This document shows, in pieces, positions 2,710 through 55,436 of a DNA stretch of 64,000 bases. The stretch is taken from IMG/VR virus record IMGVR_UViG_3300005689_000302, positions 19,204 through 83,203 of that record, one strand, 5' to 3'. The notes beneath the pieces were generated by a model that was given only the letters and a program-made list of their open reading frames with translations, was not told the origin of the DNA and did not search any database. A program made the position numbers and the translations under genes. The stretch is from a virus. Its lineage: Duplodnaviria; Caudoviricetes. Numbering within the stretch: position 1 is the first letter of the stretch; every line of letters begins with the position of its first letter.

Positions 2710-2760
2710 TCGCCTGCTGGCTTTCTCTCGACTCTTCCCTCTTCACTCTCGACTCGTCTC

Positions 2761-5700
2761 GTGCTTGCACCTAAAGGCGGCCTCCGCATCAACGGCACTA
2801 CCTACCGCGAAGGCGATCGCGTTACGAAGCGCGACGCCCGCGCGCTGCGCGATGCGCGCCGCCACGCCAAGCTAGGCCAATCGACGCAGCGAGCCGTCGA
2901 TCCGGCGGCGCTGATTAAGGACGTCCCGCCAAACTTTGGGCGGGCGATCCTGCCTCACGTTATGACCTTCAGCGGCATGATGAGCACGCTCTCGAAGGTC
3001 TATCGCAACAGCGACGAAGCGCTGCGCCATTCCGTCGAAAACGCCCACATGATGGTTCAAGACCCGATGGTCATGGGCCCGATCTTGGCGCGGCAAAAGA
3101 TGGTGGCGCTCTACAACTGGCATTTGCAACCGGAAGACGAAGACGACAAAACGCAGCAAGCGCTCTGCCGCGATCTGACGACGATCCTCAACCGCATTCC
3201 GCGGTTTGTCGAATACCGGCGCATTCTGCTGCAAGCGGTCTTCTATGGTCGCTATGCGGTTCAGCATCAGTACAGCTTCCACACGGACAGCAAGCGCAAC
3301 CGCCGAACGATCGTCTCGCACTATACGCCGATCAGCGGCGATAAGCTCGCTTTCCGCTACGACGACGGGCGCGGGGAGTATGACTACAACCAAGTCGGCG
3401 TGAAGGTGACGCCGGCGCTCAATCACCGCGACGTCATCGCCGGCGATCGGGAGCTGGAAGTGACCGGCGACGGGATGGCGTATTTCCTGCAGCCGTGGGA
3501 GCGCTCGCGGTTCGCCGTCCACAAGCATTTGCTGTGGGATGGCGATTATGAGGATCCGCTCTCGGCCGGCAAGATTCACGGCGTCGGCCTGCGCTCCTTC
3601 ATCTATTGGGTCTGGTACCAGAAGCAAGAAGTGCTCGCCCAATTGATGGAGATTGTCGAGCGAACGGGAATGGGCTTCTACGTCTATTACTACCCGATGG
3701 GCAACGCCGCCGCGAAGGCGGAAGTCGAGAAGATCGCCCAAGAGCAAGCGCATACCAACCGGATTATCGTCCCGCATGACCTGGGCGACCCCGACGCCTA
3801 CCGGATCGAACAGATTCCGCCGAACACGGCGGGGATCGAGATTCTGCAAGCGATCGTCACGAATCACTTTCAGAATCAAATCACCAAGTTCGTTCTCGGG
3901 CAAACGCTCTCCACCGACGCGGCGGCAACGGGCCTGGGAAGCGGCGTCGCCGACCTGCACGAAAAATCGCTGCTCAACCTGGCGCGATACGACGCGATCA
4001 ACCTTGAGGAAACGATCACCCGCGAGCTGGTTTGGCCGCTACGGGATTTCAACTTTCCGAAGTATCGCTCGATCGACATCCTCTTCAAAATCGACACGGA
4101 GTCGAGCACGCCGAAAGAAGACCTCGACGCGGCGAAGGCGCTGTGGGATATGGGCGCCGAGCTGAAGAGCGCCGACTTGTTCGACAAGCTCGGCCTCTCG
4201 ATGCCCGGGCCGAACGATCTGAAGCTCTCTAATCCGCAATTGCAGCAGCAAGCCGCCGGCATGATGCCGGGGATGCCTGGAATGCCGCCGGGAATGCCGC
4301 CCGGGCTGCCTGGCGCCGATCCGATGGCTGGCATGATGGGCGGGCCGGAAGAAGGCGGGCCAGAGGATCAGCCGCCGGGCGACGATCCGAGCGAACCGCC
4401 TGGCGGGCCGCCGGCGATGCCGGGCGACGCGGCGCCGCAAGGGCCGGATCTGAAACGCATCTTCGGGCCGATTCTGCACGCCAAGCACAAGCCGGCCGAG
4501 GGCCAGCGCTCGTTGTGGGATGAAGAGAAGCATCCGCGCGACGAAGCCGGGAAGTTTGCGCCGAAGGCTGGCGATAAGTTCACGCTGCCGCCCGTTGGCG
4601 ATCGGAAGCCGATGCCGATGAAGGTTTATGGCGTCGATGATGCGCACGCCTACGCCCAACTCGACACGCCCGAACATAACAAGTGGGCTGAGAAGTATCC
4701 GGCGCCGGGAACCGGTTACGCGAAAGTTCCGCTGCAAAGCTGGAAGCATTTTGTCAACGATCTGAGCGGAAAGCTGCAATTCGACACGCCGAGCGGTAAT
4801 CACGCTGTCGATGCGGTCGCCGCCGGCAAGGGCAAGTGGCTGGGCAAGGGCGACGACGGCGTCGCCTGGCGGGTCGGCGATTGGGTTGTCAAAGCGTCGA
4901 CCACCGTTCCTTTTATTCCCGAAAACCCTGGCCACCGAACGCCCGATGAAGCGGCGGCCATGATGGAGAAGGCGAGCACGGCGCACGAGAAGCTACGGCG
5001 GGCCGGAGTGAAGGGCCTAGTTCCCATCTATCACTTCCGGCACGAAGACAAGCACCTGCAGGTAATGCCGTTTCTGGATACTGAAACGCCCCTGACGGGT
5101 GAACAGCTTTGGCAAATCGAGAAAACGCTCGAGCAAATCCACGCTGCCGGCTATACGCTGAACGATCAGATTCAAGCCGGCGTGATGGACGATGGCAACG
5201 CCTATATTTATGACACCGGCAAGATTCGCCCCGGCGCCGACAACTGGAAGAAGGAAAGCGACCGCGACGAACTACGCGCCCTAAAGAGTCGTCACGGCCA
5301 CCCGGAACCGATCGACGTATGGGATGGAAACAACGACGATCTGGACGCCGAGGACGCCGCCGAAGCGGCCGCGGCCCGCGAAGACGACAAGCGCCGCTAT
5401 GGCATGGCGATGCGTTACGCCAAGCAAGCGAGCCTGTGGGACGAAGAGAAGCATCCCCGCGAAGACGACGGCAAGTTCGCCTTTACCTCGGGTCCGGGCG
5501 GCGGATCATCGCCCGCCAAGAGCAAGCCGGCCAGTCTCTTCGGTGATGATGACGCCGGCGACGATGAACCGTTCACCCTCGGCGCCGCGCCGAAGAAGGC
5601 AAAGCAAGGCGGGCGCTTCGAAGGCAAAGGAAAAGAAAAGCAGCCGCCACTCTTCTCGGGGCTGAACGCGCTGCCTGGTCAGAAAGATCTATTCGACGAT

Positions 5701-8700
5701 CTGGACAAACCGGCGCCGCCGGATCCTTTGAAAGCCCCGCGCGAAGCCGCGCCGCCGCCGAAGCTCGTCAGCGAGCCGCCGCCGGCGCCTGCGCCCACCG
5801 CGACCGAATCGCTCGCTCCGATCAGCTCGAAGAATTACGCGCCGCATGTGTACGCCGGCCTCAACAAGCTGTGGGACGCCGGCGGGACGGCCTACGTCAA
5901 CACGCATCTGAAAACGACGCGGATCGCGCCGAAGGATCGAGACGCGATCAAGCTCACGAGCAAGGGCGGTCTATACCTGCGCCGCGGCAAACATTGGGAT
6001 GCGATCACCGGCGACGTACTCGATCGCCTGGGAAGCCAAGTCGGCCTACCGTCGAGCTACGATCTGCACAAGCAAGAATGGGACGCCGAGCACAAGAACG
6101 CCCGCTACGGCGGCAAGCATCCGGGCGAACTACACGACGCCGAATTTCTCGATCACGCCGAAACGGAGAAGCGCCATCGGGCCAACTATTTCGACGCCGC
6201 CGGCAATAAGTTCGCGAGCAGTCGCGAGACGCCGGCCGAATATGTCGACCTCCCCATCGGTTCCTGGCGGAAGGATCGCAGCTTTAGCGGCCTCTACGGA
6301 AACAGCATCGATCAGCTCGTCGAGCTCGATCCGAACCATTTGGAGTTGCCCGAGGGGGACTACGCCGCCAATCCGAATTTCAACCCGGAAGGGCGACGAT
6401 GGGATGCGGAGCGATACGCCGATTGGATCCGCGAGGGGAAAACCCCGCCGCCGATCAGCGTGCTCGAAATGCCCAATGGATCGCTGAAGGTTAGCGATGG
6501 CCACCGCCGCGCCGCCGCCGCCAAGATGACCGGCCAGCCGATTCGCGCCTGGGTCAATTGGGCGGCCGATACCGGCAAGAAGGATTACGAAGGCAAGCCG
6601 ATCCTGTCGGGGATGACCGATCAGCTCGCCGCGCGCGAGCACGCCGGCGAAGTCGAACCGCATAGCGGCCTGGGCTGGGGGCATGAGGGCGTTGTGAAGC
6701 GGGCGGGGCCTGAGCGACACGCCAAGCCTCGCCCCCTCGACGACTTTGCCCTGCGCAACTTCGCCGAGCGGATCCGCCGCGGCGATCAGCACGGCGCCCG
6801 CGATCTGCTCGTCCGGGCCGGCTTCGATCCGCTGACGCTCGACGCCTATTGGGGAATGATCGTTAAGTCAGTGGTGGGCGGAACTGCGCCGATCAAGCAC
6901 GCCCGCGATCTTCGCGCCGCCATCACCGCCGCGGCTGACGCCACGAATACAGATCCGAGCGACGCCCAGCGCGAAGCCGGCAACTATCCCAAGGGCAAAC
7001 TGTGGCTGCACGGCCTCGAGCTGACGATCGAGAACCCGAAAGGCTCGAAGCGCCGGCCGGAGTGGAAGCCGCTGGCGGCCCACTACGGCTACATTCGCCG
7101 CCACGAAGGCGCCGACGGCGATCAAGTCGATTGCTACCTCGGGCCCCATCCGGAAAGCCAGCTCGTCTTCGTCATCGATCAGCCGAAGGCCTCGGGGCGC
7201 TTTGACGAGCATAAGGTGATGTTCGGCTGGACGAACCTCCGCGACGCGCGAAAAGCGTACGCCGACTGCTATCAAGCCGGCTGGAAAGTCGGCCCGATCA
7301 CCGCCCTGACGATCGAGCAATTCAAAGACTGGCTCGAGTTCGGCGACTTGTCGAAGCCGATCGGCCGCTACAAGCCGGCGAAATACGCCCGCTCGATGGC
7401 GTCGGTGCTGCGCTACGCCGAGCGATCGGAAGAACGCGGGCAAGGCCGCGGCCAGCCTGGCAATCGCGGGCAGTTCGGCTACGCGCCCAAGCGGAAGAAA
7501 ACGATCGGGCAAGGCCAGCAAGAGTTCCATTGGGTGACGATCGACGGAACGCACGTTGCGATCAACGATGCGACCGGGGCGATCGAAAAGGGTCCGAAGG
7601 CGCTCGTGGGTAAGACGCTCGGCGGGCCGAAGAAACAGAAGGGGCTGTTTGACGACGACGATAAGCCGGCGAAAAAGGCGGAAGAGAAGCCCGAAGAGAA
7701 ACGGGTCGAAGCGCCGCCCGAAAAGAAACCGCCCGAGGTGCCGGCGACGATCGAAGAGCTTGACGACGACGTTGTCGACGACGATGACATCGAAGCGGGG
7801 GACGATAGCGTTACCGATCGCCTCAAGTCCAGCGTAAACGCCTTTCTCGACGACAAGCCCGATGGCTCGTGGCGGGATTGGATGGATGAGCGCGGCACGA
7901 AACATTTGCTCGACGAATTAGACGGCGGCGATGATAAGCTTCGCGGGCGATTGGAGTATGAAGCGTTTGAGCTGTTCGCTTGGAGGGAGCCGAAGGAGAA
8001 GGATCAGCCGGCGGGCGAAACGGCCGACGATGTACTCGAGCCTTTCGCAGAATCTCCGGAGCCAGCCGCCGACGCGTCGCCTGAGCCGGCTCTGCCCGCC
8101 GAGCAATCTGCCACACCCTCTGCCGCTCCCGCGCCAAAGCCTGCCGCGACGGCCAAGTCAAAGGGCGCCCGCGCCGCCGCCCGCGCGAAGTTGATGGAAG
8201 ACTTCGGCGAAAAGATCGGCGGCGCTCGAAAGGAAACGGCGCGGCCTTCCAATCGTCCGAAAGTCGAGAAGCCCGCCGACGAACGGCCCGCCTGGGCGCG
8301 GCGCTACAACATTTCCCAAATCACCAAAAGCACGAAGCCCGGCGAAGAGGGGAAGTGGGCGATCTACGACACGAAACAAAAGACCTGGTCGGGCCAGCCG
8401 AAGCAAGTCGGCGGCGGCATGTTGTTTGATTCCAAGGAGGATGCCGAGAAGAGCTTGCCGCTGTACGAAGTATCGCGCAGCCACCGCGTCTACGCCTACA
8501 CGCCGAAGGGCGCGACCGAAAAGCAGTTCGGCATTTTCCGCAAACTGGGCGACCGAAAGACGCCGCTCGTCAAAGGCGGTTTTGCCTCCGAACAGGAGGC
8601 GATGCAACATATGGCGGCGAATCCACACGATGTTATCGGTCACAAGTTTCCGCGATACGAAAGCTACCAGTACCTCGATCGCGTCGAACGCAAGGGCGGG

Positions 8701-9897
8701 AAAGAGCATCGCAAGGGCGACGTGAAGCCGGCCGACTTTCAAAACGCCTTCAATTTCCGCGGCGGTGAGTTCGGCAACTGGCAATCGGGCAAGGATGGGC
8801 AAACCTCGCTCAATCACGCCTACGACGCCCTGCACGATCTGGCCGACGTGCTGGGAGTTCCGCCGAAAGCCGTCTCACTCAACGGCGATCTGGCAATCGC
8901 TTTCGGGGCGCGCGGAACGGGCGGGAAAGACGCCGCCCGCGCCCATTACGAGCCCGAAAAGCGGGTTATCAACCTGACGAAAATGTCCGGCGCCGGCACG
9001 CTGGCGCATGAGTGGCTGCACGCGCTGGACCACTACCTCGCCAAAGAGGCCGGCTCGAAGAAACACACGACGACGGGGCTTGGCTACAGGGAGAAGCTCC
9101 GCGACGATCTGCACGCCGCGATGAAGGGCGTTCACGACGCGTTGATGACGAAGACGGTCGAAGAAGGATTCTCTGACGAAAAGACGGGCAAGCAACGCGA
9201 CGCGGCGCACGAGAACCTTGCCGAGCAACTGAAGAACATCGAGCAACTGTTTGACTACTACGGAAAGAAGAAGCCGTTCACGCCCGAGCAACAAAAGCAA
9301 TGGAACGAGCTTAAGGGCAAGATTCTCGCGGGCGATGTGGGCAAGGCCGGCTACCTGCCGAGTAAATCGCAATATGGCGGTCCGCCGACGTTTGAGAATC
9401 TGCATCAACTGAACCAGCTCTACAAGGCGCGCACCGGGCGCAGCTTCCATACGAGCGATCAAAACTCCTATGGCCACCGGCTCTATTGGGCGGCCAAGCA
9501 TCTTGTTGATTCCAACGAAGCGGTGGAAAAGGCCAAGCAAGGCGCCACGCAACAGCGGAAAGCCAAGACGGATTTCTTTCATGCGGCCGTCGATTTGGAC
9601 AAGACGCGCGCCAGCGACTATTACACGCTGCCCGAGGAAATGATGGCCCGCGCCTTCGAAGGCTACGTCATGGACAAGCTGGCGGCCAAGCAACAAAAGA
9701 ACGATTACCTCGGCGGCAAGGCTGACAATCGATTCTATGAGGCTTACGGGATGAAGCCGTTCCCCGAGGGCGACGAACGCAAGGCGATCAACGCCGCCTT
9801 CGACAAGCTATTCACCACGCTCAAGCACGAATCGCGCAGCGACGAACGCGGCGAACACGCTCGGCTGTATTCCAAGTTGCGCGAACGGGTTTCCTAG
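2761..9897 (+). CDS. DUF935 (Mu gp29-like) portal fused to polyvalent-protein domains (kinase-like, ParB-like, inorganic pyrophosphatase-like, LPD5/LPD1-like zincin)
   Basis: Portal-like N-terminus (to ~4250). Kinase-like LGKGDDGVAW..VVK..YDTG. ParB-like PPPISV..DGHRRAAA. PPase-like GNYPKG..IENPKG..YGYI..DGDQVD..DEHKVM. DFGEKIGGARK, FRGGEFGNW, LAHEWLHALD, EMMARAFE. Confidence 0.85.
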   Translation: MLAPKGGLRINGTTYREGDRVTKRDARALRDARRHAKLGQSTQRAVDPAALIKDVPPNFGRAILPHVMTFSGMMSTLSKVYRNSDEALRHSVENAHMMVQDPMVMGPILARQKMVALYNWHLQPEDEDDKTQQALCRDLTTILNRIPRFVEYRRILLQAVFYGRYAVQHQYSFHTDSKRNRRTIVSHYTPISGDKLAFRYDDGRGEYDYNQVGVKVTPALNHRDVIAGDRELEVTGDGMAYFLQPWERSRFAVHKHLLWDGDYEDPLSAGKIHGVGLRSFIYWVWYQKQEVLAQLMEIVERTGMGFYVYYYPMGNAAAKAEVEKIAQEQAHTNRIIVPHDLGDPDAYRIEQIPPNTAGIEILQAIVTNHFQNQITKFVLGQTLSTDAAATGLGSGVADLHEKSLLNLARYDAINLEETITRELVWPLRDFNFPKYRSIDILFKIDTESSTPKEDLDAAKALWDMGAELKSADLFDKLGLSMPGPNDLKLSNPQLQQQAAGMMPGMPGMPPGMPPGLPGADPMAGMMGGPEEGGPEDQPPGDDPSEPPGGPPAMPGDAAPQGPDLKRIFGPILHAKHKPAEGQRSLWDEEKHPRDEAGKFAPKAGDKFTLPPVGDRKPMPMKVYGVDDAHAYAQLDTPEHNKWAEKYPAPGTGYAKVPLQSWKHFVNDLSGKLQFDTPSGNHAVDAVAAGKGKWLGKGDDGVAWRVGDWVVKASTTVPFIPENPGHRTPDEAAAMMEKASTAHEKLRRAGVKGLVPIYHFRHEDKHLQVMPFLDTETPLTGEQLWQIEKTLEQIHAAGYTLNDQIQAGVMDDGNAYIYDTGKIRPGADNWKKESDRDELRALKSRHGHPEPIDVWDGNNDDLDAEDAAEAAAAREDDKRRYGMAMRYAKQASLWDEEKHPREDDGKFAFTSGPGGGSSPAKSKPASLFGDDDAGDDEPFTLGAAPKKAKQGGRFEGKGKEKQPPLFSGLNALPGQKDLFDDLDKPAPPDPLKAPREAAPPPKLVSEPPPAPAPTATESLAPISSKNYAPHVYAGLNKLWDAGGTAYVNTHLKTTRIAPKDRDAIKLTSKGGLYLRRGKHWDAITGDVLDRLGSQVGLPSSYDLHKQEWDAEHKNARYGGKHPGELHDAEFLDHAETEKRHRANYFDAAGNKFASSRETPAEYVDLPIGSWRKDRSFSGLYGNSIDQLVELDPNHLELPEGDYAANPNFNPEGRRWDAERYADWIREGKTPPPISVLEMPNGSLKVSDGHRRAAAAKMTGQPIRAWVNWAADTGKKDYEGKPILSGMTDQLAAREHAGEVEPHSGLGWGHEGVVKRAGPERHAKPRPLDDFALRNFAERIRRGDQHGARDLLVRAGFDPLTLDAYWGMIVKSVVGGTAPIKHARDLRAAITAAADATNTDPSDAQREAGNYPKGKLWLHGLELTIENPKGSKRRPEWKPLAAHYGYIRRHEGADGDQVDCYLGPHPESQLVFVIDQPKASGRFDEHKVMFGWTNLRDARKAYADCYQAGWKVGPITALTIEQFKDWLEFGDLSKPIGRYKPAKYARSMASVLRYAERSEERGQGRGQPGNRGQFGYAPKRKKTIGQGQQEFHWVTIDGTHVAINDATGAIEKGPKALVGKTLGGPKKQKGLFDDDDKPAKKAEEKPEEKRVEAPPEKKPPEVPATIEELDDDVVDDDDIEAGDDSVTDRLKSSVNAFLDDKPDGSWRDWMDERGTKHLLDELDGGDDKLRGRLEYEAFELFAWREPKEKDQPAGETADDVLEPFAESPEPAADASPEPALPAEQSATPSAAPAPKPAATAKSKGARAAARAKLMEDFGEKIGGARKETARPSNRPKVEKPADERPAWARRYNISQITKSTKPGEEGKWAIYDTKQKTWSGQPKQVGGGMLFDSKEDAEKSLPLYEVSRSHRVYAYTPKGATEKQFGIFRKLGDRKTPLVKGGFASEQEAMQHMAANPHDVIGHKFPRYESYQYLDRVERKGGKEHRKGDVKPADFQNAFNFRGGEFGNWQSGKDGQTSLNHAYDALHDLADVLGVPPKAVSLNGDLAIAFGARGTGGKDAARAHYEPEKRVINLTKMSGAGTLAHEWLHALDHYLAKEAGSKKHTTTGLGYREKLRDDLHAAMKGVHDALMTKTVEEGFSDEKTGKQRDAAHENLAEQLKNIEQLFDYYGKKKPFTPEQQKQWNELKGKILAGDVGKAGYLPSKSQYGGPPTFENLHQLNQLYKARTGRSFHTSDQNSYGHRLYWAAKHLVDSNEAVEKAKQGATQQRKAKTDFFHAAVDLDKTRASDYYTLPEEMMARAFEGYVMDKLAAKQQKNDYLGGKADNRFYEAYGMKPFPEGDERKAINAAFDKLFTTLKHESRSDERGEHARLYSKLRERVS

Positions 9898-44416: not shown

Positions 44417-45004
44417 CTAGCGATCGCGCAGCCGCGCTTGCAGCCGGCGGTATTCCTGAAGGAACTGGATCCGGGCCGATTCGCAATCGAGCGGATCGTC
44501 GTACGGTGATTCCAGCTCTTCGCGCGTCTCGCTGTGGTCGACGGCGGCGACGACGTCCAGTTCCCAGCGGCCGGCGATGCCGATCCCGGCGTACTCGTGG
44601 ATCGCCCATCGAACGCGATCTTCGATCCGGCGCCAGCGCTCGCCGAGCATGTGCTTCAGCGGCGTCGGGCAATCGCCCATGTACGCTTCCGCTGCGTCGT
44701 GAAGCAATCCGATCATCGCCAGCCGATCGCCGCGGTGCGCCAGCCGCCACGAGACGCGCAAGCTGTGCTCGGCGACGGTGTGCGGGCGGTCCAAGTGGCC
44801 GTTCGCCCGGCAAAGCCGGGACAAGCTCATCGCAATATCCTCGATCCGCACGTCGGCCGGCGTCGGGCCGGCTAGATCGAGCACGGCGCCGGAGTGCGTC
44901 GTGAAGCCGTGAAGCGCCTTGGCGGGCGGTTTCCGCTCTGGCCAGGCGGCCGGGGCGTAGCTTTTGGGATTGCCTGAGCGAAGCGTTTCGGGCAAAGTAA
45001 TCAT
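44417..45004 (-). CDS. HD-domain phosphohydrolase (YfbR/YfdR-like nucleotidase)
   Basis: IEDIAMSLSRLCRANGH..TVAEHS...LLHDAAEAYMGD.PTPLK. Confidence 0.85.
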   Translation of the reverse strand: MITLPETLRSGNPKSYAPAAWPERKPPAKALHGFTTHSGAVLDLAGPTPADVRIEDIAMSLSRLCRANGHLDRPHTVAEHSLRVSWRLAHRGDRLAMIGLLHDAAEAYMGDCPTPLKHMLGERWRRIEDRVRWAIHEYAGIGIAGRWELDVVAAVDHSETREELESPYDDPLDCESARIQFLQEYRRLQARLRDR

Positions 45005-46489: not shown

Positions 46490-46526
46490 ACGCCTGCTCG
46501 GCCCTCTCGGGCGGTTCATTTTTCCC

Positions 46527-46571
46527 CGGATTCTCAGTCCGAGAACGGGGGTTCGACTCCCCCAGGGGGTG
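46527..46571 (+). other. attP core: 3' half of tRNA-Glu(CUC)
   Basis: Anticodon arm CGGA-TTCTCAG-TCCG, variable loop GAAC, T-arm GGGGG-TTCGACT-CCCCC, acceptor 3' strand AGGGGGT-G. No 5' half. Upstream of the integrase. Confidence 0.75.
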
Positions 46572-46740
46572 CTTTGTTTGGCGCGAAATGCGCGTGGCTG
46601 ATCGTGTCTTCGGACTACAAATCCGAAGACCTCGGCGTCAGCGCGCCCCGCGCCGCACAAAAAAAATTTCAGCCGGGATCTCTCTTCGACGTCGCACGTT
46701 GTAAGGGCTTGTGTAGCAACTTGTTCCGGCTGAAATCGAC

Positions 46741-46834: not shown

Positions 46835-47439
46835 GACCTTCGCTACACAAGCACGGCGCCGCTTGGATGGAAACATCAAAGGCGCCAACAAAGGTGCGAC
46901 TCCTACGATTCACAAGCTCTAACGGGTTCTTCCCCGTTACCTCGGGCCTGCCTCTGGCTTCCCCGGCCGCTTGGCGTCGTTTCAGTCGCTGTTCGGATTG
47001 AAAACGACGCGACCGCTTTCCGCACCTTTCGCGGTTCGGTCGCGGAACACACCAGGTCAGGTTCGAGCGCCGCCGCGCGTTCGCGGTTCAGTCGCCGTTC
47101 GCCGGCGCGAGTGTGCATCCTCGCGCCGGCGGCGGTTTTCTGACGCTGCGTTTCCTCGCGCGCCTCGCTCCAAACCGCACGGCCTGCGCAAGCGGCGGCG
47201 GGTATCCGCTATTCCGCTGGGAAGTCTTGGAGCTTCGTTCATGGACTGGCTGGCGACTGGTACGTTGGCGACACACGTCGCTTGGCTCGCGGAATCCCCG
47301 AAGTGGGATCGGCGACTGCCGAGCGGTTTCCTCGTCAACGTGGCATCGCGTCGGACCGCGAGAAGCAAGGACCGAATTTCGCGCAGACCCGCTGTAAGGG
47401 AGGCTTGGAGCGAGTCGGGTAGGCGCTGGAGAACTCTTT

Positions 47440-48453
47440 ATGAGCTCCTGTCTCACGGTACGCGCTGGGCAAGATCGCTCGCTCCGTGCGCTTTACGAAG
47501 CGAGCTACCGGCCGCTGCGTCACCTTGGAAAATCGAAGGCCACGATCGCCGAGACGCGCTGCCAGCTCAATGTCTTCGACAAGTTCTTCGCCGAACGGCT
47601 GGCGAGTCAGCAAGCCGCGTCTCGGCCGGCGTCGATCGACGATCTGTCCGACGAACTGCTTGCCGATGCGATGGCGTGGCAAATCGATCGCGGCCGCTCG
47701 GTCGCCACGGCCAACAAGCTCTATCGCGTCCTCAAGAGCTTGTGGCGGTTCGCCCGCAAGAAGAGGCTGCTCGAGTCGCTGCCCGAGCTCGATCCGATTC
47801 CCGAAGAGAAACGCGAGCCGCGCACCTGGACGCTGGCGGACTACGAAGCGATTCTTACGGCGGCCGATGCGCTCGTCGGCTACGTCGGCGAATTGCCGGC
47901 GGCGCTCTGGTGGCGGGCGCTGCTGTTGACAGTCGTCAACACGGGCGGGCGAATCTCGGCGGTGATGGCGATCCGGTTGGTCGACGTCGATCTGGCGCGG
48001 CGGGAAATCCTCTTGCGGGCCCACAATCAGAAGCAGCGCTGCGATCAGCGGTTCGAATTGCAGCCGACGGTCGTCGTGGCGCTGCGGGCGATTGGGGCGG
48101 GCGATCCGCACGGCGACACGCGCGAGTTTCTCTTCCCCTGGCCGCTCGATTGCGGCAACGAAGGGCGCCAGTGGCGATCGCTGCGGCGGCATTACCGGCG
48201 GCTGCTCGATGCGGCCGGCCTGCCGAGCGGGCGGCGCAATCTCTTCCACAACCTGCGGGCGTTTACGGCGACGATTCTCGCCGACGCCAAAGGGGAAGAG
48301 TTTGCCCGCGACTATCTCGGCCATTCGCACGCCAGCGTCACGCGGCGGTATCTCGACCGCGCGCAAATGAAAACCAAACGCTCGGGCGTGGCGCACCTGC
48401 CCGAGCCGAAGCTCTCGCCGTCGCTGCGGATTCATGCCGGCGACGCCGGCTAA
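47440..48453 (+). CDS. int: Tyrosine recombinase/integrase
   Basis: NTGGRIS (Arg I), FHNLR (HxxR), LGH, RRY catalytic Tyr. Confidence 0.92.
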   Translation: MSSCLTVRAGQDRSLRALYEASYRPLRHLGKSKATIAETRCQLNVFDKFFAERLASQQAASRPASIDDLSDELLADAMAWQIDRGRSVATANKLYRVLKSLWRFARKKRLLESLPELDPIPEEKREPRTWTLADYEAILTAADALVGYVGELPAALWWRALLLTVVNTGGRISAVMAIRLVDVDLARREILLRAHNQKQRCDQRFELQPTVVVALRAIGAGDPHGDTREFLFPWPLDCGNEGRQWRSLRRHYRRLLDAAGLPSGRRNLFHNLRAFTATILADAKGEEFARDYLGHSHASVTRRYLDRAQMKTKRSGVAHLPEPKLSPSLRIHAGDAG

Positions 48454-48645
48454 GAGCGGCGATTTTCTGCGTCAACCGGCCGCGCGTCGGCCGAGGGGTG
48501 TTCGACGTGTCCCTCGGTCGGCCGCGGTCGTTCTTTGTTTCGTGCCGGCTGCTGCGCCGGCCGGTTTCTCCGCGCTTGCCGCAACCCCCGCTGCGATGCG
48601 GCCGGCAAGCGACCGGACTAGGAGCGGTGTTGGAAAGGATGTTGT

Positions 48646-48990
48646 ATGTCTCTCTCGAAGAATGGGTTGTCGGCAAGCGGCGGTACGGTAGGAATCGGCG
48701 GCGGCGATCGCGACACGCGCATGCGCCACGCAGCGGCAAGCGGCGAACGTCCGCTCCCGCGAAACGGCGGTCGGCGGCCGAAGACGCCCGACCCGACGCC
48801 GGCGGAAATTCGCCAGCGGGCGGAAGCGATTCAAGAAGAATGGAGCGAAGCGACGCGCCTCCTGCGTCTCGTCTCGCGGCCGGCGGCCTGGTCGCCGCCG
48901 CGGGTGCGACTGTGCGACGACTTCACGATCGAGCTGCTCGGCTTGGCCGCGGGCCTGGGCGGCGACGCGTATGGAGACGCCGCCGCATGA
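48646..48990 (+). CDS. Hypothetical protein
   Basis: PTPAEIRQRAEAIQEEWSE motif. Operon packing. Confidence 0.5.
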   Translation: MSLSKNGLSASGGTVGIGGGDRDTRMRHAAASGERPLPRNGGRRPKTPDPTPAEIRQRAEAIQEEWSEATRLLRLVSRPAAWSPPRVRLCDDFTIELLGLAAGLGGDAYGDAAA

Positions 48991-49238
48991 CAAAAGAACT
49001 TCGTTTGCAGCGCGACGGGCATCTGTTCGTTCTGCGCTATGACGACTCGCGGCCGTGCCTGGCGGTGCAAGCGTGCTTGATGTGGCTCGGCGACCTCGAG
49101 CTGCCGTTTCGCTTCGGCGACCTGGCGAACGTCACCCGCTACGTCCGGGCGACAACGCCGCGGCTGGTGGCGCCGGTGCCGCCGATCGCTTTATCCGAGC
49201 TCGACGTATGGGAGCGATTCTGTGGCGACGATCGTTGA
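48987..49238 (+). CDS. Hypothetical protein
   Basis: ATGA overlap with the upstream ORF. Confidence 0.5.
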   Translation: MTKELRLQRDGHLFVLRYDDSRPCLAVQACLMWLGDLELPFRFGDLANVTRYVRATTPRLVAPVPPIALSELDVWERFCGDDR

Positions 49239-50954: not shown

Positions 50955-51299
50955 ATGCCCACCCAACTCGCCAAGCGTCCCGCCTCGCGGGAGTCGGTTC
51001 ATCCCCAAATGGAAGCGCTCGTCGCTTCATTCCCCTGCCTGCGCAAAGCCGTTGGCGGCTCGCCGTGGGATGCGTTTCGCTTCGCCCGCTGGGCGACGCA
51101 AACGGAGCTCTCGCCGGCCGATCGGCAAGCGGCCGCCTTTGTGCTCGCCGTCTGGAATGGCGGCGACGAAGACGGGGCCTGGTGGAACGAGAAGCCGTAT
51201 GGCGTCGGGCGGTTCGACCTGGTGCTGGCGACGGCGCTGTGGGATCGCCGGCATAAAGAGGCGTTTGGGAAGTGGTTTGCGAATCCGTTTTGGCCGTGA
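50955..51299 (+). CDS. Hypothetical protein
   Basis: AAFVLAVWN..FDLVLA..WD..H..AF..W..NPFWP. Confidence 0.65.
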   Translation: MPTQLAKRPASRESVHPQMEALVASFPCLRKAVGGSPWDAFRFARWATQTELSPADRQAAAFVLAVWNGGDEDGAWWNEKPYGVGRFDLVLATALWDRRHKEAFGKWFANPFWP

Positions 51300-51344
51300 A
51301 AGAACTTATGTATTTACGGAATGCGATCGTCGGGAATCCGCGGC

Positions 51345-51552
51345 CCTCATTGTTAGTCGGCTACCAACCGACGTCAGGGACTCGCAACCCTGAATGGCGA
51401 GCAGTCGAACGGCCCAGAGCGCCGATCGAGCCTCTCGCCGGAGTCCAAGAGTCGCCGCAAGGCGAGACCGAAAAGGCTTCGGATGATATGGACCGAGGCA
51501 ATTCCTTCCCGGAGGGCCGCGGTTTTCCGGCGATCGCTTCCATCTTTTTTTT
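51345..51552 (+). ncRNA. tracrRNA-like structured RNA
   Basis: Several hairpins (one GCAA tetraloop), loop CTCGCAA (51381-51387) and GCAATTCCTTCCCGGA (51498-51513) complementary to the repeat 3' half. Ends in T8. The 5' boundary is approximate. Confidence 0.75.
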
Positions 51553-51576
51553 GTCCATGTTCTTAAGGATTTCCGA

Positions 51577-52128
51577 ATGACCAGAAAAATGACCAGCAGT
51601 CAGAAGCACGCCGAGCTCAAGCGCCTGTCGAAGGAGATTCATACGAACATCTTCCAGATGGCGCGGCTCGCCTCGGAACTGCTCGATGACATCGAATACG
51701 TCGACTCTTGCGGCGGAGAAGGGGCGTTGCTCGACCAGCTTCAGCAAAAGGAGTTTTCACACTTTGGCGGTTCGCCGTCGGTGGCGCAGTTGGTGCGCGC
51801 CTATCGGGCGAATGGAAAAGAAGAAGCATGGCGTCAGCGCGGCTTCAACGTCTGGGCGATGATCGAACTGGCCAACCCACCGGCGGCGCGGACCAGTGGC
51901 GCCAGCTCCAATGGCCAGCCTAAAAAGTCGGTTAAGGAATTGGAGGCGACACTTGCGGAGCGCGAGGCGGCTTTCGGCAAGGAACGATCCACGAGCGAAG
52001 CGACGATCGCAGAGCTGCAAGCCAAGGTAGAGGTGTTAGAGAAAGAGAATCGTCAACTTCGCAGACGAATTGAAACGCTGGAGCGCGACTTGAACGAGCG
52101 AGCCAGTCAGCAAGCGGCGATGGCGTAA
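51577..52128 (+). CDS. Hypothetical protein with a C-terminal coiled coil, inside the CRISPR locus
   Basis: Helical N-terminus and IAELQAKVEVLEKENRQLRRRIETLE leucine-zipper-like tail. Confidence 0.75.
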   Translation: MTRKMTSSQKHAELKRLSKEIHTNIFQMARLASELLDDIEYVDSCGGEGALLDQLQQKEFSHFGGSPSVAQLVRAYRANGKEEAWRQRGFNVWAMIELANPPAARTSGASSNGQPKKSVKELEATLAEREAAFGKERSTSEATIAELQAKVEVLEKENRQLRRRIETLERDLNERASQQAAMA

Positions 52129-52145: not shown

Positions 52146-52775
52146 GTTGCGCGAGGCATGGGTTCGGGAGGGAATTGCGAGAGAGCGAGTCCCCGGAAGG
52201 AGTCCGCCTAAGTTGCGCGAGGCATGGGTTCGGGAGGGAATTGCGAGTGCAGCCATACGGCACGCGCCCGGTGATCGGTTGCGCGAGGCATGGGTTCGGG
52301 AGGGAATTGCGAGTTGTCGCGGCGGGGAATGATCGGTGCGCCGGTTGCGCGAGGCATGGGTTCGGGAGGGAATTGCGAGGAAAATGCGGTCCGGCTCCGG
52401 AAGTGGTCAGTTGCGCGAGGCATGGGTTCGGGAGGGAATTGCGAGAAATGGCCCGCGTGGGGGCACACTTCGCGAGTTGCGCGAGGCATGGGTTCGGGAG
52501 GGAATTGCGAGAGCAGTTCGTCGGCCCACTTCTTCATATTCGTTGCGCGAGGCATGGGTTCGGGAGGGAATTGCGAGTCAAGATATTCGCTCAGGCAATC
52601 CGGGCGCGTTGCGCGAGGCATGGGTTCGGGAGGGAATTGCGAGTACCTGGTCATCTGGAACTCTTGGGAACGAGTTGCGCGAGGCATGGGTTCGGGAGGG
52701 AATTGCGAGCGCCAACGCGGTTAGAGAAAGATCGATTTCGTTGCGCGAGGCATGGGTTCGGGAGGGAATTGCGAG
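52146..52775 (+). CRISPR. CRISPR array: 10 identical 36-nt repeats GTTGCGCGAGGCATGGGTTCGGGAGGGAATTGCGAG and 9 spacers of 30 nt
   Basis: Repeats start at 52146, 52212, 52278, 52344, 52410, 52476, 52542, 52608, 52674 and 52740 (66-nt period). Spacers are unique. Confidence 0.98.
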
Positions 52776-52852
52776 TATTCCCAGTTTTGACCGCGTTTGC
52801 GTAACGATATTGGTTCGAAAAAAAAACGCCATCACCATAAGGAAATCCAGCG

Positions 52853-54085
52853 ATGCAATCGATCACATTACTTCGTTTGAAAGTGGAGCCGCGCCACGCT
52901 GCCGAGCTCGCTGAGATAGGAGAGCTTTGTCGACGCGGCCGAAACGCCGCGGTGACGGACTGGCTCTTGCGCCAGCATGGCCTTCCGGAAAGCGACCGCC
53001 AGAGGAAACGTCTGCGGGCGATGTCGGCCAATGAGCGAGACAAACTACTAGCTCGCGGCCTCGATCCCGACGTGCAGCAAAAGAGCGAAAACGCCAAGCT
53101 CTACGCCGCGGTCACTGAGAAAATTCCCGAACTGAGCGGCGCCGTCGCCTCGGTGATCGCTAATTCAGTCGCCTCCTCGTTGTCGAAGCGAATCGATTGG
53201 CGGCGCGGTTTCGATCAAGAGGGAAAACGGCGGCGGATGCGTGACGCGATTCTAGCCGGCGACGACAGACCTCCGTTCACCACTAAACGCGAGATACCAG
53301 TGGTGGGAAAAAAGGCGAGCGTTGCTTTTGACGACACGCTCTCGGTATCGATCCAGCGGCCGACGCAAGCAATCGAATGCCTCACTCTCGGTTTGAGTCT
53401 TCGTCGCTTGCCTGCGCCCCACAAGAAGCTGTTGCGAGCGCTGGCCTCGGGCGCGCGGAAGCTCACCGACTCGAAGCTGGTGATGAAGGATCAGGAGTGG
53501 TTCTGGCACGTTACCTTTTTCGATGAGCGGGAGCGACTGTCGGATGCGCGGGCGGAGCTGTACCCGGTGCTCGCGGGCGAGAGAACGAAATCCTTCGATC
53601 CGTTCCTGCGGATGGAGTTTCCGGAAGACCGCTGTTGGTATGTGGGCGACGGCGCCTATTTGCGGGCGCAGACGCGGCGCTACATCGGACTGCGAAAGCA
53701 GATTGGCTGGCGGTATCGTTTCGGCCATGGTCGGGGGCACGGACGGGAGAAGGTCGACGCCGCCATATCGCGGCGCTACGAACAGGAGCGCAACATGCGA
53801 TCGGAGGTTCTTTGGCGATCGATAAACGACGCGCTTCGCGTTTGCGAGCGTCGAAATTTTGGCGTGCTGGTTTATCACGAGCCGAGCCTACCGCTGCGGG
53901 AAAAGTGCTGGTTTGCCCGCAACGATCAGGGGCTGTCGATCGACTGGAATTGGACGAGTTTTCGCCAACGGCTGATCAATGCGGCGGCTAGGCGGCGGGT
54001 GGAAGTGATCGTTGAACCGTGGAAGCTGAAGGAGGCGATGGCCGATGCCAAAAAGAGAAGCGATTCGCAAGATGATGCCGTGTGA
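52853..54085 (+). CDS. Miniature type V (Cas12f/TnpB-like) effector, RuvC-degenerate and lacking the Zn finger
   Basis: WED/REC-like N-terminus (CRRGRN, ILAGDDRPPF), AELYPV where GxDxG is expected, GHGRGHGR, VLVYHE(343), WNWTSFRQRL..A..V.V, then ends without CxxC or RuvC-III. Lies 77 nt after the array with an AAGGA RBS. Confidence 0.75.
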   Translation: MQSITLLRLKVEPRHAAELAEIGELCRRGRNAAVTDWLLRQHGLPESDRQRKRLRAMSANERDKLLARGLDPDVQQKSENAKLYAAVTEKIPELSGAVASVIANSVASSLSKRIDWRRGFDQEGKRRRMRDAILAGDDRPPFTTKREIPVVGKKASVAFDDTLSVSIQRPTQAIECLTLGLSLRRLPAPHKKLLRALASGARKLTDSKLVMKDQEWFWHVTFFDERERLSDARAELYPVLAGERTKSFDPFLRMEFPEDRCWYVGDGAYLRAQTRRYIGLRKQIGWRYRFGHGRGHGREKVDAAISRRYEQERNMRSEVLWRSINDALRVCERRNFGVLVYHEPSLPLREKCWFARNDQGLSIDWNWTSFRQRLINAAARRRVEVIVEPWKLKEAMADAKKRSDSQDDAV

Positions 54086-54344
54086 GGTCTGCGCGGCTGA
54101 GGTGTCGATGGGAGGCGAGGCGTTGATTGAGGCGAGCGAAGGAAAGCGGACGGTTTTGTGTGGTCGCTGCCGCCGGTACGTTTCTTCGTCGCGCTGCCGA
54201 GTCTCTCAATTACCGTCCGAGGCGTCGGCTCCGGCCGTTGGACTGGCGAGGAAATCCGGCAAAAGCGCCAAGCACAAGCGGGGCCTAGCGAGCTGTCCAC
54301 TGCGCAGAATGTTGTAACCATCTGACGAAACCGCCAAACCACGG

Positions 54345-55436
54345 ATGGCCAAGCGCCGACCAACCATCGACCCCAACAACCGACCGCTCTTGGCGGAAGC
54401 CGAAGAGCAATCCCGGCGGAATTGGGCGTTGATCCGGTTGGCGCGGCTGCCTGTGTCGGCGGCGGAAGTTCGCTTGGTGCGACGGTTGTTGGAGCGGGTC
54501 TTCGCCATGAGCTCACGATTTCCGTGGCAGGTAACCAACGAGCAACTGGCCGAAGACTTAGACGTTGGCGTCCGAACGCTGCAGCACGCCAAAAGCGTGG
54601 CAAAGCGCCTCGGCGTCCTAAAGATCGAAATGGATTGCGGGTCTGGTGGTCGGCGCGCGGATCGTTTGAGTGTCAATCTCGATGGCTTGCGCGCCTACCA
54701 GAAGCAGCATGAACCGCCATGCGAAATCGGCGCGGCGCCGCGCAAAGTTCGCATGGCGCCGCGCAAAGTTCGCATGGCGCCGCGCGAAAACAGCGCGGCC
54801 TATAAGGAAAGGTCCAGTTCCTCTTCCAGTATTAGTTCCAAAGAACCTTCCCCTTCAGTTTCCAGCGATCCCGCCGCGAAGCGCTCCGTTCCCGAGGCCG
54901 CGGAAGACTGGCAAACCGTGGAGGGGGCTCTTGGAAAGCTGGGGATGGAAGCGGCCGGCCGCTGCGCGGCGATGGCTCGGTGGAAAGGATACGCGCTGGC
55001 GGAAATGCAAGCGCTGATCGCCTATTGGCAAGAGCATCCCGGCGCGTGGCGCATCGGCGCGCTGTGGTCGCGGATCGAGAACTCGGCCGCCGGGCGAGCG
55101 ATCGCCGAGGGCTGGCCGCCGATGGATGAAAGCTACCTCCGGCAAGCCGAATGGCGGGCGCGCGTCGAGCGCGAACGCCAGCAAGCGGCGGCGGAAGTGG
55201 CGAAGGACGTGGCGCGGCGGGCGGAAGCGCAAGCGAAGCTGGCCGAGCTGCAGGCCCTCGAAGCGAAGCACCTGCCGGGCCTCGAAGCGCTCGACCGGGA
55301 ATCGCTGCTCGCGCTGGCGGGCGAGCTGTTCGGCGACGGTCTGCTCTTGCAGCGGTTTGAAAAGCTCGGCCTGGCCGACGACTCGCTGCGGTGGTTGTTG
55401 ATGGAACGATTGGATAAGCGGGGCTCTGGCCCCTGA
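54345..55436 (+). CDS. Replication initiator (N-terminal wHTH)
   Basis: VTNEQLAEDLDVGVRTLQHAKSVAKRLGVLKIE HTH and a Ser-rich linker carrying tandem repeats. Confidence 0.7.
   Translation: MAKRRPTIDPNNRPLLAEAEEQSRRNWALIRLARLPVSAAEVRLVRRLLERVFAMSSRFPWQVTNEQLAEDLDVGVRTLQHAKSVAKRLGVLKIEMDCGSGGRRADRLSVNLDGLRAYQKQHEPPCEIGAAPRKVRMAPRKVRMAPRENSAAYKERSSSSSSISSKEPSPSVSSDPAAKRSVPEAAEDWQTVEGALGKLGMEAAGRCAAMARWKGYALAEMQALIAYWQEHPGAWRIGALWSRIENSAAGRAIAEGWPPMDESYLRQAEWRARVERERQQAAAEVAKDVARRAEAQAKLAELQALEAKHLPGLEALDRESLLALAGELFGDGLLLQRFEKLGLADDSLRWLLMERLDKRGSGP
54734..54789 (+). repeat. Tandem 21-bp repeats (candidate iterons/origin)
   Basis: GGCGCCGCGCAAAGTTCGCAT twice plus a partial third copy, inside the initiator linker. 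Confidence 0.6.

Follow-up and report, generated by a model that had tools for sequence, protein, structure and literature searches.

What is encoded in the 277 nt that separate a 114-aa ORF ending at position 51299 from a 183-aa ORF at 51577–52128, and how is it related to the CRISPR array and the Cas12f-like gene that lie downstream? A first-pass annotation had flagged an interval in this gap as a + strand tracrRNA candidate with two anti-repeat segments. The window, i.e., the whole 64,000-nt stretch of DNA analyzed, comprises bases 19204–83203 of an 83.2-kb IMG/VR virus record rated complete by CheckV. It carries a tyrosine integrase gene (47440–48453 (+); PF00589, E 6e-13), a tRNA-Glu(CTC) gene about 0.9 kb upstream of it (46501–46572 (+)), a gene for a 2395-aa polyvalent phage protein into which a Mu-type portal is fused and which also contains an InPase domain and LPD1 (2710–9897 (+)), and a gene for a DUF5131 protein. 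The integrase beside the tRNA gene, the portal-bearing polyvalent protein and the DUF5131 protein together identify the window as part of a temperate phage, with a host of 62.6% G+C. Neither Cas1 nor Cas2 nor a TNB domain (PF07282) was found in the whole 83-kb phage. A 755-aa ORF at 46971–49238 (+), considered as a possible large effector, was rejected, its Arg/Ala-rich translation being read in the wrong frame over the integrase gene. Elsewhere in the window, a 363-aa ORF (54345–55436) with a weak PHROG match to a replication-initiator O-like protein contains a perfect 21-nt tandem repeat of 2.5 copies (54734–54785), which encodes a repeated APRKVRM motif.

Folding of the + strand from 51328 to 51556 gave a minimum free energy of −102.5 kcal/mol (z = −3.87), compared with z = −2.30 for the − strand. 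The putative tracrRNA gene extends over 51328–51552 (+), about 225 nt, of which about 205 nt form a structured body that is followed by a tail and a T8 run. The body is closed by a terminal head-to-toe stem, P0, in which 51328–51348 pairs with 51512–51532 (20 bp, two G:U). The 5' strand of P0 places the start of the element at 51328, about 17 nt upstream of the previously assigned 51345, while the T8 in which the element had been said to end is indeed found at 51545–51552, separated from the 3' strand of P0 by 12 nt. Enclosed by P0 are the hairpin P2 (TCAGGG/CCCTGA, 51374–51393), the stem P3 (GGCGAG/CTCGCC, 51396–51439), which in turn encloses a helix, P3a, with a CCAA-type loop, and an internal H-type pseudoknot (51443–51499) formed by the helices PK1 (51443–51447 with 51489–51493) and PK2 (51476–51481 with 51494–51499), with a lineage-specific insert hairpin at 51452–51465 inside the pseudoknot region. 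The loop of P2, CTCGCAA at 51381–51387, is a short anti-repeat against the repeat 3' end TTGCGAG, exactly as first annotated, and a long anti-repeat occupies 51500–51513. All other hairpins listed by the first-pass annotation are present in the sequence, although one of them, CCGAA/TTCGG, competes with the PK2 helix, the relatives speaking for the pseudoknot. Consensus scans scored neither a sigma-70-type promoter nor a classical terminator in the window, and Rfam contained no match to the RNA element.

Related loci were collected by BLAST, motif search and a covariance model. In L010, a 73.6-kb relative, the intergenic sequence that precedes the homologous operon includes a stretch alignable to window positions 51370–51520, and altogether the RNA element was found in 12 distinct related metagenomic phage loci, once per locus and only on the strand of the effector gene. 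It lies upstream of the effector gene in all of these loci except L028, where it lies downstream, and in L010 an unrelated 178-aa gene is inserted between the element and the following coiled-coil gene. A T-run follows P0 in about seven of the 12 loci, and a near-consensus promoter just upstream of the element was seen only in L012. Searched by its core pattern, the tracrRNA returned nothing from 185,579 reference genomes and only two contigs from IMG/VR, both among the loci already found.

The covariation for which the first-pass annotation had proposed to look was found both within the RNA core and with the repeats. Within the core helices, both bases differ between loci in 12 of 20 pairs, pairing is retained in 93.8% of cells (77.5% in shuffles), and the covariation score is 0.47, as against ≤0.09 in controls with the partners slid by 1–3 columns. 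For example, GGCGAG/CUCGCC of P3 is replaced by GCCGAG/CUCGGC, GGUGAG/CUCACC or AGCGAG/CUCGCU in other loci, and the outer stem pair of P2 covaries as CG in eight loci and GC in four. PK1 and PK2 are both present, with differing sequences, in nine loci, in each of which the 3' strand of PK2 is at most 1 nt away from the anti-repeat. P0 is found in 12/12 loci with 15–27 bp, although its sequences are unrelated between loci; the mean duplex free energy is −44.4 kcal/mol for strands of the same locus and −18.5 kcal/mol for strands combined across loci. Over the 12 loci the P0 stems hold 25 G:U pairs, which become mismatches if read on the other strand. On this comparative evidence the element is a conserved, structured RNA whose ends are predicted to be clamped by a long head-to-toe stem.

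The segment GCAATTCCTTCCCGGA (51498–51513) is complementary to repeat bases 18–33 with two G:U pairs, and is the sole off-array match in the 64-kb window at ≤2 mismatches, where 0.05 would be expected for a fixed 16-mer; the 16-mer was, however, picked post hoc from about 21 repeat sub-windows, so that its uniqueness count alone is weak. The 16-bp duplex proposed earlier is therefore borne out in its site, its complementarity and its two G:U pairs, but not in its full length, since the relatives assign 51498–51499 (GC) to the internal pseudoknot helix and leave a conserved long duplex of 14 bp, formed with repeat positions −19 to −6 and including both G:U pairs. With this duplex extending no further than repeat position −6, the final 5–7 bases of the repeat stay available to the P2 loop. 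Its free energy in the window, flanks included, is −28.8 kcal/mol.

In a register test, the 12 nt after the pseudoknot were compared with positions −17 to −6 of the repeat of the same locus in the 11 loci with an array or single repeats. Standard pairs form in 127 of 132 cells at this fixed register, 10 of 12 positions are occupied by 2–5 different pair types, and 11 of the pairs are G:U. Each tracrRNA pairs best with its own repeat (10–12 of 12 positions, as compared with an off-diagonal mean of 7.4/12), and none of 100,000 permutations reassigning tracrRNAs to repeats reached the observed sum, a count that is uncorrected for the relatedness of the loci. The tracrRNA and the repeat belong to distinct loci, the distance between them reaching 2 kb or more, and the changes are compensatory. 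The G:U pairs of the intermolecular duplex and of P0 would become A·C on the other strand and thus hold for + strand transcripts only, in agreement with the orientation that the first-pass annotation had derived from the wobbles. We conclude from these alignments that the long anti-repeat of 12–14 nt directly 3' of the pseudoknot is the predicted pairing partner of repeat positions −6 to −19.

The second contact would be made by the P2 loop. In 10–11 loci the loop sequence CUCGC stands opposite a repeat end GCGAG; L036 combines a CUCUC loop with a half-repeat, the sole repeat-like unit of the locus, ending in GAGAG. In the window the short duplex would have 5–7 bp, with the loop bases at 51381–51387, and the loop CUCGC(AA) is thus the predicted complement of the last 5–7 bases of the repeat, next to the spacer, and would form a pseudoknot with this 3' end of the repeat. 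Both anti-repeats announced by the first-pass annotation hence stand at fixed places and covary with the local repeat across the 12 loci compared. The repeat alone has no significant self-structure (z = 0.33), again as first annotated, and an unstructured repeat is expected in tracrRNA-dependent systems. Co-folding of the tracrRNA with a repeat-spacer unit by RNAcofold did not return the anti-repeat duplex, a result that is uninformative because, with P0 closed, this duplex is a topological pseudoknot and is excluded by nested folding.

The CRISPR array itself (52146–52805 (+)) is built from 30-nt spacers alternating with a 36-nt repeat present in ten identical copies, and ends in a spacer with no repeat behind it; as previously pointed out, the protein gene at 51577–52128 lies between it and the RNA element. 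For none of the ten spacers did the rest of the phage genome contain a full-length counterpart, the best match outside the array measuring 16 nt, and a search of IMG/VR with spacers 4, 6 and 8 returned no exact match of 24 nt. The 16-nt match belongs to spacer 7 (52578–52607) and lies at 44967–44982 (−) in a YfbR-like HD-domain gene; it covers spacer positions 9–24, is flanked by mismatches and misses the repeat-proximal end, and is probably due to chance (BLAST E 3e-4 for one spacer against an 83-kb genome). For the arrays of L010 and L014, likewise, nothing convincing was matched in the records from which they come, which are 63–70% complete. The first, 36-nt spacer of L035, in contrast, is perfectly matched in its own contig (L035:562–597 (−) and L035:6437–6472); the self-match falls in the 3' end of a DUF5131 gene, with a 5' flank on the protospacer strand of ...GATCAGA. 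Such a self-target is tolerable only with a non-cutting effector.

Full arrays are found in the window, L035 and L010, arrays of one spacer in L012 and L016, and half-repeats abut the tracrRNA in L014, L033 and L035; in several relatives, a half-repeat placed right after the element runs into the ribosome binding site of the next gene. Single half-repeats (L014:5450–5470, L035:4390–4405, L033:811–830, L016:4945–4970, L036:2405–2425, L044:1499–1516) correspond to the 3' part of the repeat that pairs with the tracrRNA, have a GCGAG-like end, and occur after the tracrRNA, before gene starts and at distant sites, such as one at about 39.4 kb in G002 with a terminator behind it. They may represent guide units that stand alone, or remnants of arrays that have since moved. 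At L033:811–1650, beside the tracrRNA, full repeats, half-repeats and unequal spacers are intermixed in a very irregular array that recalls what has been described for relatives of dCas12f as 'irregular omegaRNA-like arrays'. A conserved inverted pair, CTCGCAAG ... (C/T)TTGCGA(G/C), was also observed at the 3' end of the small Zn-ribbon ORF, just upstream of the arrays (L014:7340–7405, L022:2600–2665, L023:1410–1470, L028:2830–2900); it shares words with the tracrRNA loop and the repeat end, and is absent as such after the Zn-ribbon ORF of the window.

Directly after the array lies the gene for a 410-aa protein (P0002, 52853–54085 (+)), which we regard as a Cas12f-like effector predicted to be nuclease-dead. 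It has no match in Pfam, NCBIfam, PADLOC or PHROGs, and its profile retrieved nothing from the 185,579 reference genomes, whereas about 20 close homologues of 380–450 aa are present in metagenomes. An AlphaFold2 model built from the homologue alignment (pLDDT 88.8) retrieved Cas12f structures first in Foldseek (AsCas12f, E 8e-16, TM 0.61–0.64), together with the solved natural dCas12f 9n9c (TMt 0.71), and placed TnpB, Cas12g, Cas12m and Cas12k below Cas12f. Consistent with this, the family profile matched AsCas12f among PDB sequences (E 1.4e-7) in the bridge-helix/RuvC-II region, with a GHGRxK motif in both, and dCas12f 9n9c with E 6e-5. According to the model, the protein is thus predicted to have the Cas12f/TnpB fold with WED, REC and RuvC domains.

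The RuvC-II glutamate, E343, is invariant in the effector family, but no conserved acidic residue is found at the position aligned to the RuvC-I aspartate (GIDLG in AsCas12f), and the protein ends about 45 aa past RuvC-II, before the TNB zinc finger and RuvC-III; no CxxC pair exists in its 410 residues. With the RuvC-I aspartate, the TNB and RuvC-III missing, the effector is therefore predicted to be nuclease-dead, and the complex would probably bind DNA without cutting it, for silencing or recruitment. A full HMMER scan returned 390 clusters at 50% identity related to the effector, and among the matches listed and checked the alignment extends to the match's own C-terminal end, so that the relatives look like a sizeable family of truncated proteins.

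Two further genes accompany the effector throughout the family. The 183-aa protein encoded between the RNA element and the array (51577–52128 (+)) is a predicted coiled-coil protein whose gene adjoins the tracrRNA or the effector in all loci examined, with 35–47% identity and an invariant motif YVD..GGE...EF.H. Against Pfam it gave only coiled-coil noise; a weak protein-atlas lead to DUF3102 (score 0.81) was not adopted, and a predicted complex of effector and coiled-coil protein scored 0.00, which speaks neither for nor against binding. The second is a small Zn-ribbon ORF of 90 aa (P0024, CxxC...CxxCRRYV; 54045–54317 (+)), detected by tblastn with the homologues from L014 (E 6e-9) and L012 (E 5e-5), which in most relatives sits between effector and array. 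Its similarity to TNB is not significant, and searches of this ORF and its neighbors against Pfam, NCBIfam, PADLOC and PHROGs gave nothing beyond coiled-coil noise. No sigma-factor genes or domains were found among the neighboring ORFs scanned.

Taken at face value, a 16-mer complementary to a repeat might be an accident of a GC-rich intergenic region in which hairpins are incidental, and by our estimate a match at two mismatches with about 21 sub-windows to choose from would be expected about one time in 64 kb, both strands counted. Chance of this kind is refuted by the conservation of the element, by its restriction to one strand and by its covariation, internally and with the repeats, in 11–12 loci, and we give it a negligible probability. 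Alternatively, the element might be mainly a structured 5' UTR that acts in cis on the coiled-coil/effector operon, as a leader or attenuator with a terminator-like stem and U-run at its end, its complementarity to the repeat being secondary or regulatory rather than guide-forming. In nearly all loci the next gene downstream of the element is indeed the coiled-coil gene, P0 with its T-run resembles a very large terminator hairpin, and the half-repeats that lead from the element into a ribosome binding site in several relatives would suit such a role. However, the 178-aa gene intervenes in L010, the element comes after the effector in L028, and a pure leader would have no need of two segments that track the repeat in register over 11 loci. 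We thus regard a leader function in place of a guide function as improbable, though the two roles are compatible with each other.

The RNA might also act on a foreign system, as a phage decoy or hijacker that pairs with host type V-F crRNAs or loads a host Cas12f. A precedent exists in a phage-borne inactivated Cas9 accompanied by a tracrRNA matching host repeats, for which anti-CRISPR mimicry has been proposed (PMC10910872), and the absence of adaptation genes from the phage would fit. Yet the RNA of the window matches the phage's own array, the phage has a Cas12f-like gene of its own, and RNA, array and effector gene occur together in all loci; moreover, the absence of the effector family and of the tracrRNA core from the 185,579 reference genomes means that no known host system with such a repeat is at hand. 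A decoy is accordingly, in our estimation, slightly less probable even than the leader. What the strand-specific covariation with the local repeats argues for instead is that 51328–51552 (+) encodes a Cas12f-type tracrRNA, a reading that we hold to be very likely on comparative grounds.

In the mechanism that we propose for this tracrRNA, the array would be transcribed on the + strand, and each repeat-spacer unit would anneal to one tracrRNA molecule through the two duplexes. The resulting tracrRNA:crRNA hybrid, probably trimmed by host RNases, would be bound as a guide by the 410-aa Cas12f-like protein, and the complex would bind matching DNA without cutting it, acting as an RNA-guided silencer or recruiter in which the coiled-coil and Zn-ribbon proteins may participate. 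By this means the temperate phage could control genes of its host, of rival phages or of its own.

The type V-F1 Cas12f1 systems (AsCas12f1, Un1Cas12f1, SpCas12f1) provide the closest comparison, sharing with the phage locus a structured RNA of about 200 nt and an unstructured repeat. The Cas12f1 guide combines a long duplex with a short pseudoknot duplex (PMC11246509), and in SpCas12f1, whose tracrRNA has 156 nt, the 5' end of this RNA is proposed to pair with the stem-5 region in a head-to-toe stem (PMC12255294). Likewise, the phage tracrRNA would pair with the repeat in a long duplex close to its own 3' end and, through an upstream segment, in a short duplex of 5–7 bp at the repeat 3' end by the guide, predicted to form a pseudoknot, and would have a head-to-toe stem; with these three elements it would work like a Cas12f1 tracrRNA. 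The first-pass annotation had invoked pseudoknotted guides of both Cas12f and Cas12k, of which the parallel to Cas12f holds, while the guide of Cas12k has been described with a triple helix (PMC11246509). A miniature effector with the Cas12f fold and the grouping of tracrRNA, array and Cas12f-family gene, repeated as the same trio in the related loci, are further common features. The phage tracrRNA, which has no detectable sequence or Rfam similarity to its Cas12f1 counterparts, differs from them in that a protein gene intervenes between its gene and the array; the locus is phage-borne, lacks Cas1, Cas2 and Cas4, and contains two conserved accessory genes. In contrast to Cas12f nucleases, the effector has neither the RuvC D-E-D triad (the RuvC-I Asp and RuvC-III being absent) nor the TNB zinc finger.

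Natural dCas12f proteins are C-terminally truncated, mostly sigma-E-linked and guided by a single chimeric RNA, with no tracrRNA found, although some are encoded near CRISPR arrays (PMC13472631). Like the sigma-E-associated dCas12f, the phage effector is truncated at the C terminus, with loss of part of the RuvC site, and is expected to bind DNA without cleavage. The sequence similarity of the two is remote, and the phage locus has no operonic rpoE (sigma-E with CTD) among the neighboring ORFs scanned but retains a tracrRNA of full size, encoded separately, together with arrays holding up to 10 spacers. TldR, Cas12m and Cas12k are likewise RNA-guided members of the RuvC family that bind DNA but do not cut it, and some TldRs are prophage-encoded. 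In contrast to the phage system, TldR uses a single guide of the omegaRNA type and has no array, Cas12m processes its own crRNA and has no tracrRNA, and Cas12k is tied to Tn7-like transposons and has a triple-helix guide (PMC11246509); in Foldseek, TldR, Cas12m and Cas12k all ranked below Cas12f for the phage effector. The combination of a predicted nuclease-dead Cas12f-like protein with a tracrRNA of full size and an array of several spacers distinguishes the phage system from these relatives.

According to a published scenario, Cas12f loses RuvC-III and its array shrinks to a half-repeat beside the tracrRNA, with which it is then fused (PMC10691335), and the half-repeats beside the tracrRNA in some of our relatives resemble the intermediate stage. 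Tentatively, and with a little less than even confidence, we suggest that these loci form a distinct phage-borne V-F-like branch, in which a dead, RuvC-III-less Cas12f relative with a full-size dual-RNA guide, multi-spacer arrays and the coiled-coil and Zn-ribbon proteins would serve temperate phages as a programmable multiplex silencer or recruiter of genes, and whose members with one-spacer arrays and tracrRNA-abutting half-repeats would be intermediates on the way from Cas12f1 to single-guide dCas12f/omegaRNA systems.

For a 410-aa relative of Cas12f, the analysis supplies a natural tracrRNA whose docking sites, pseudoknot and head-to-toe stem have been mapped by covariation, which suffices for the design of a single guide with which this very small natural protein could be tried as a CRISPRi-type tool. 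With full arrays, one-spacer arrays and half-repeats side by side in one family, the published scenario of Cas12f collapse becomes directly testable. Lastly, the finding that temperate phages keep complete guide modules for a protein predicted not to cut raises the question of what these phages silence.
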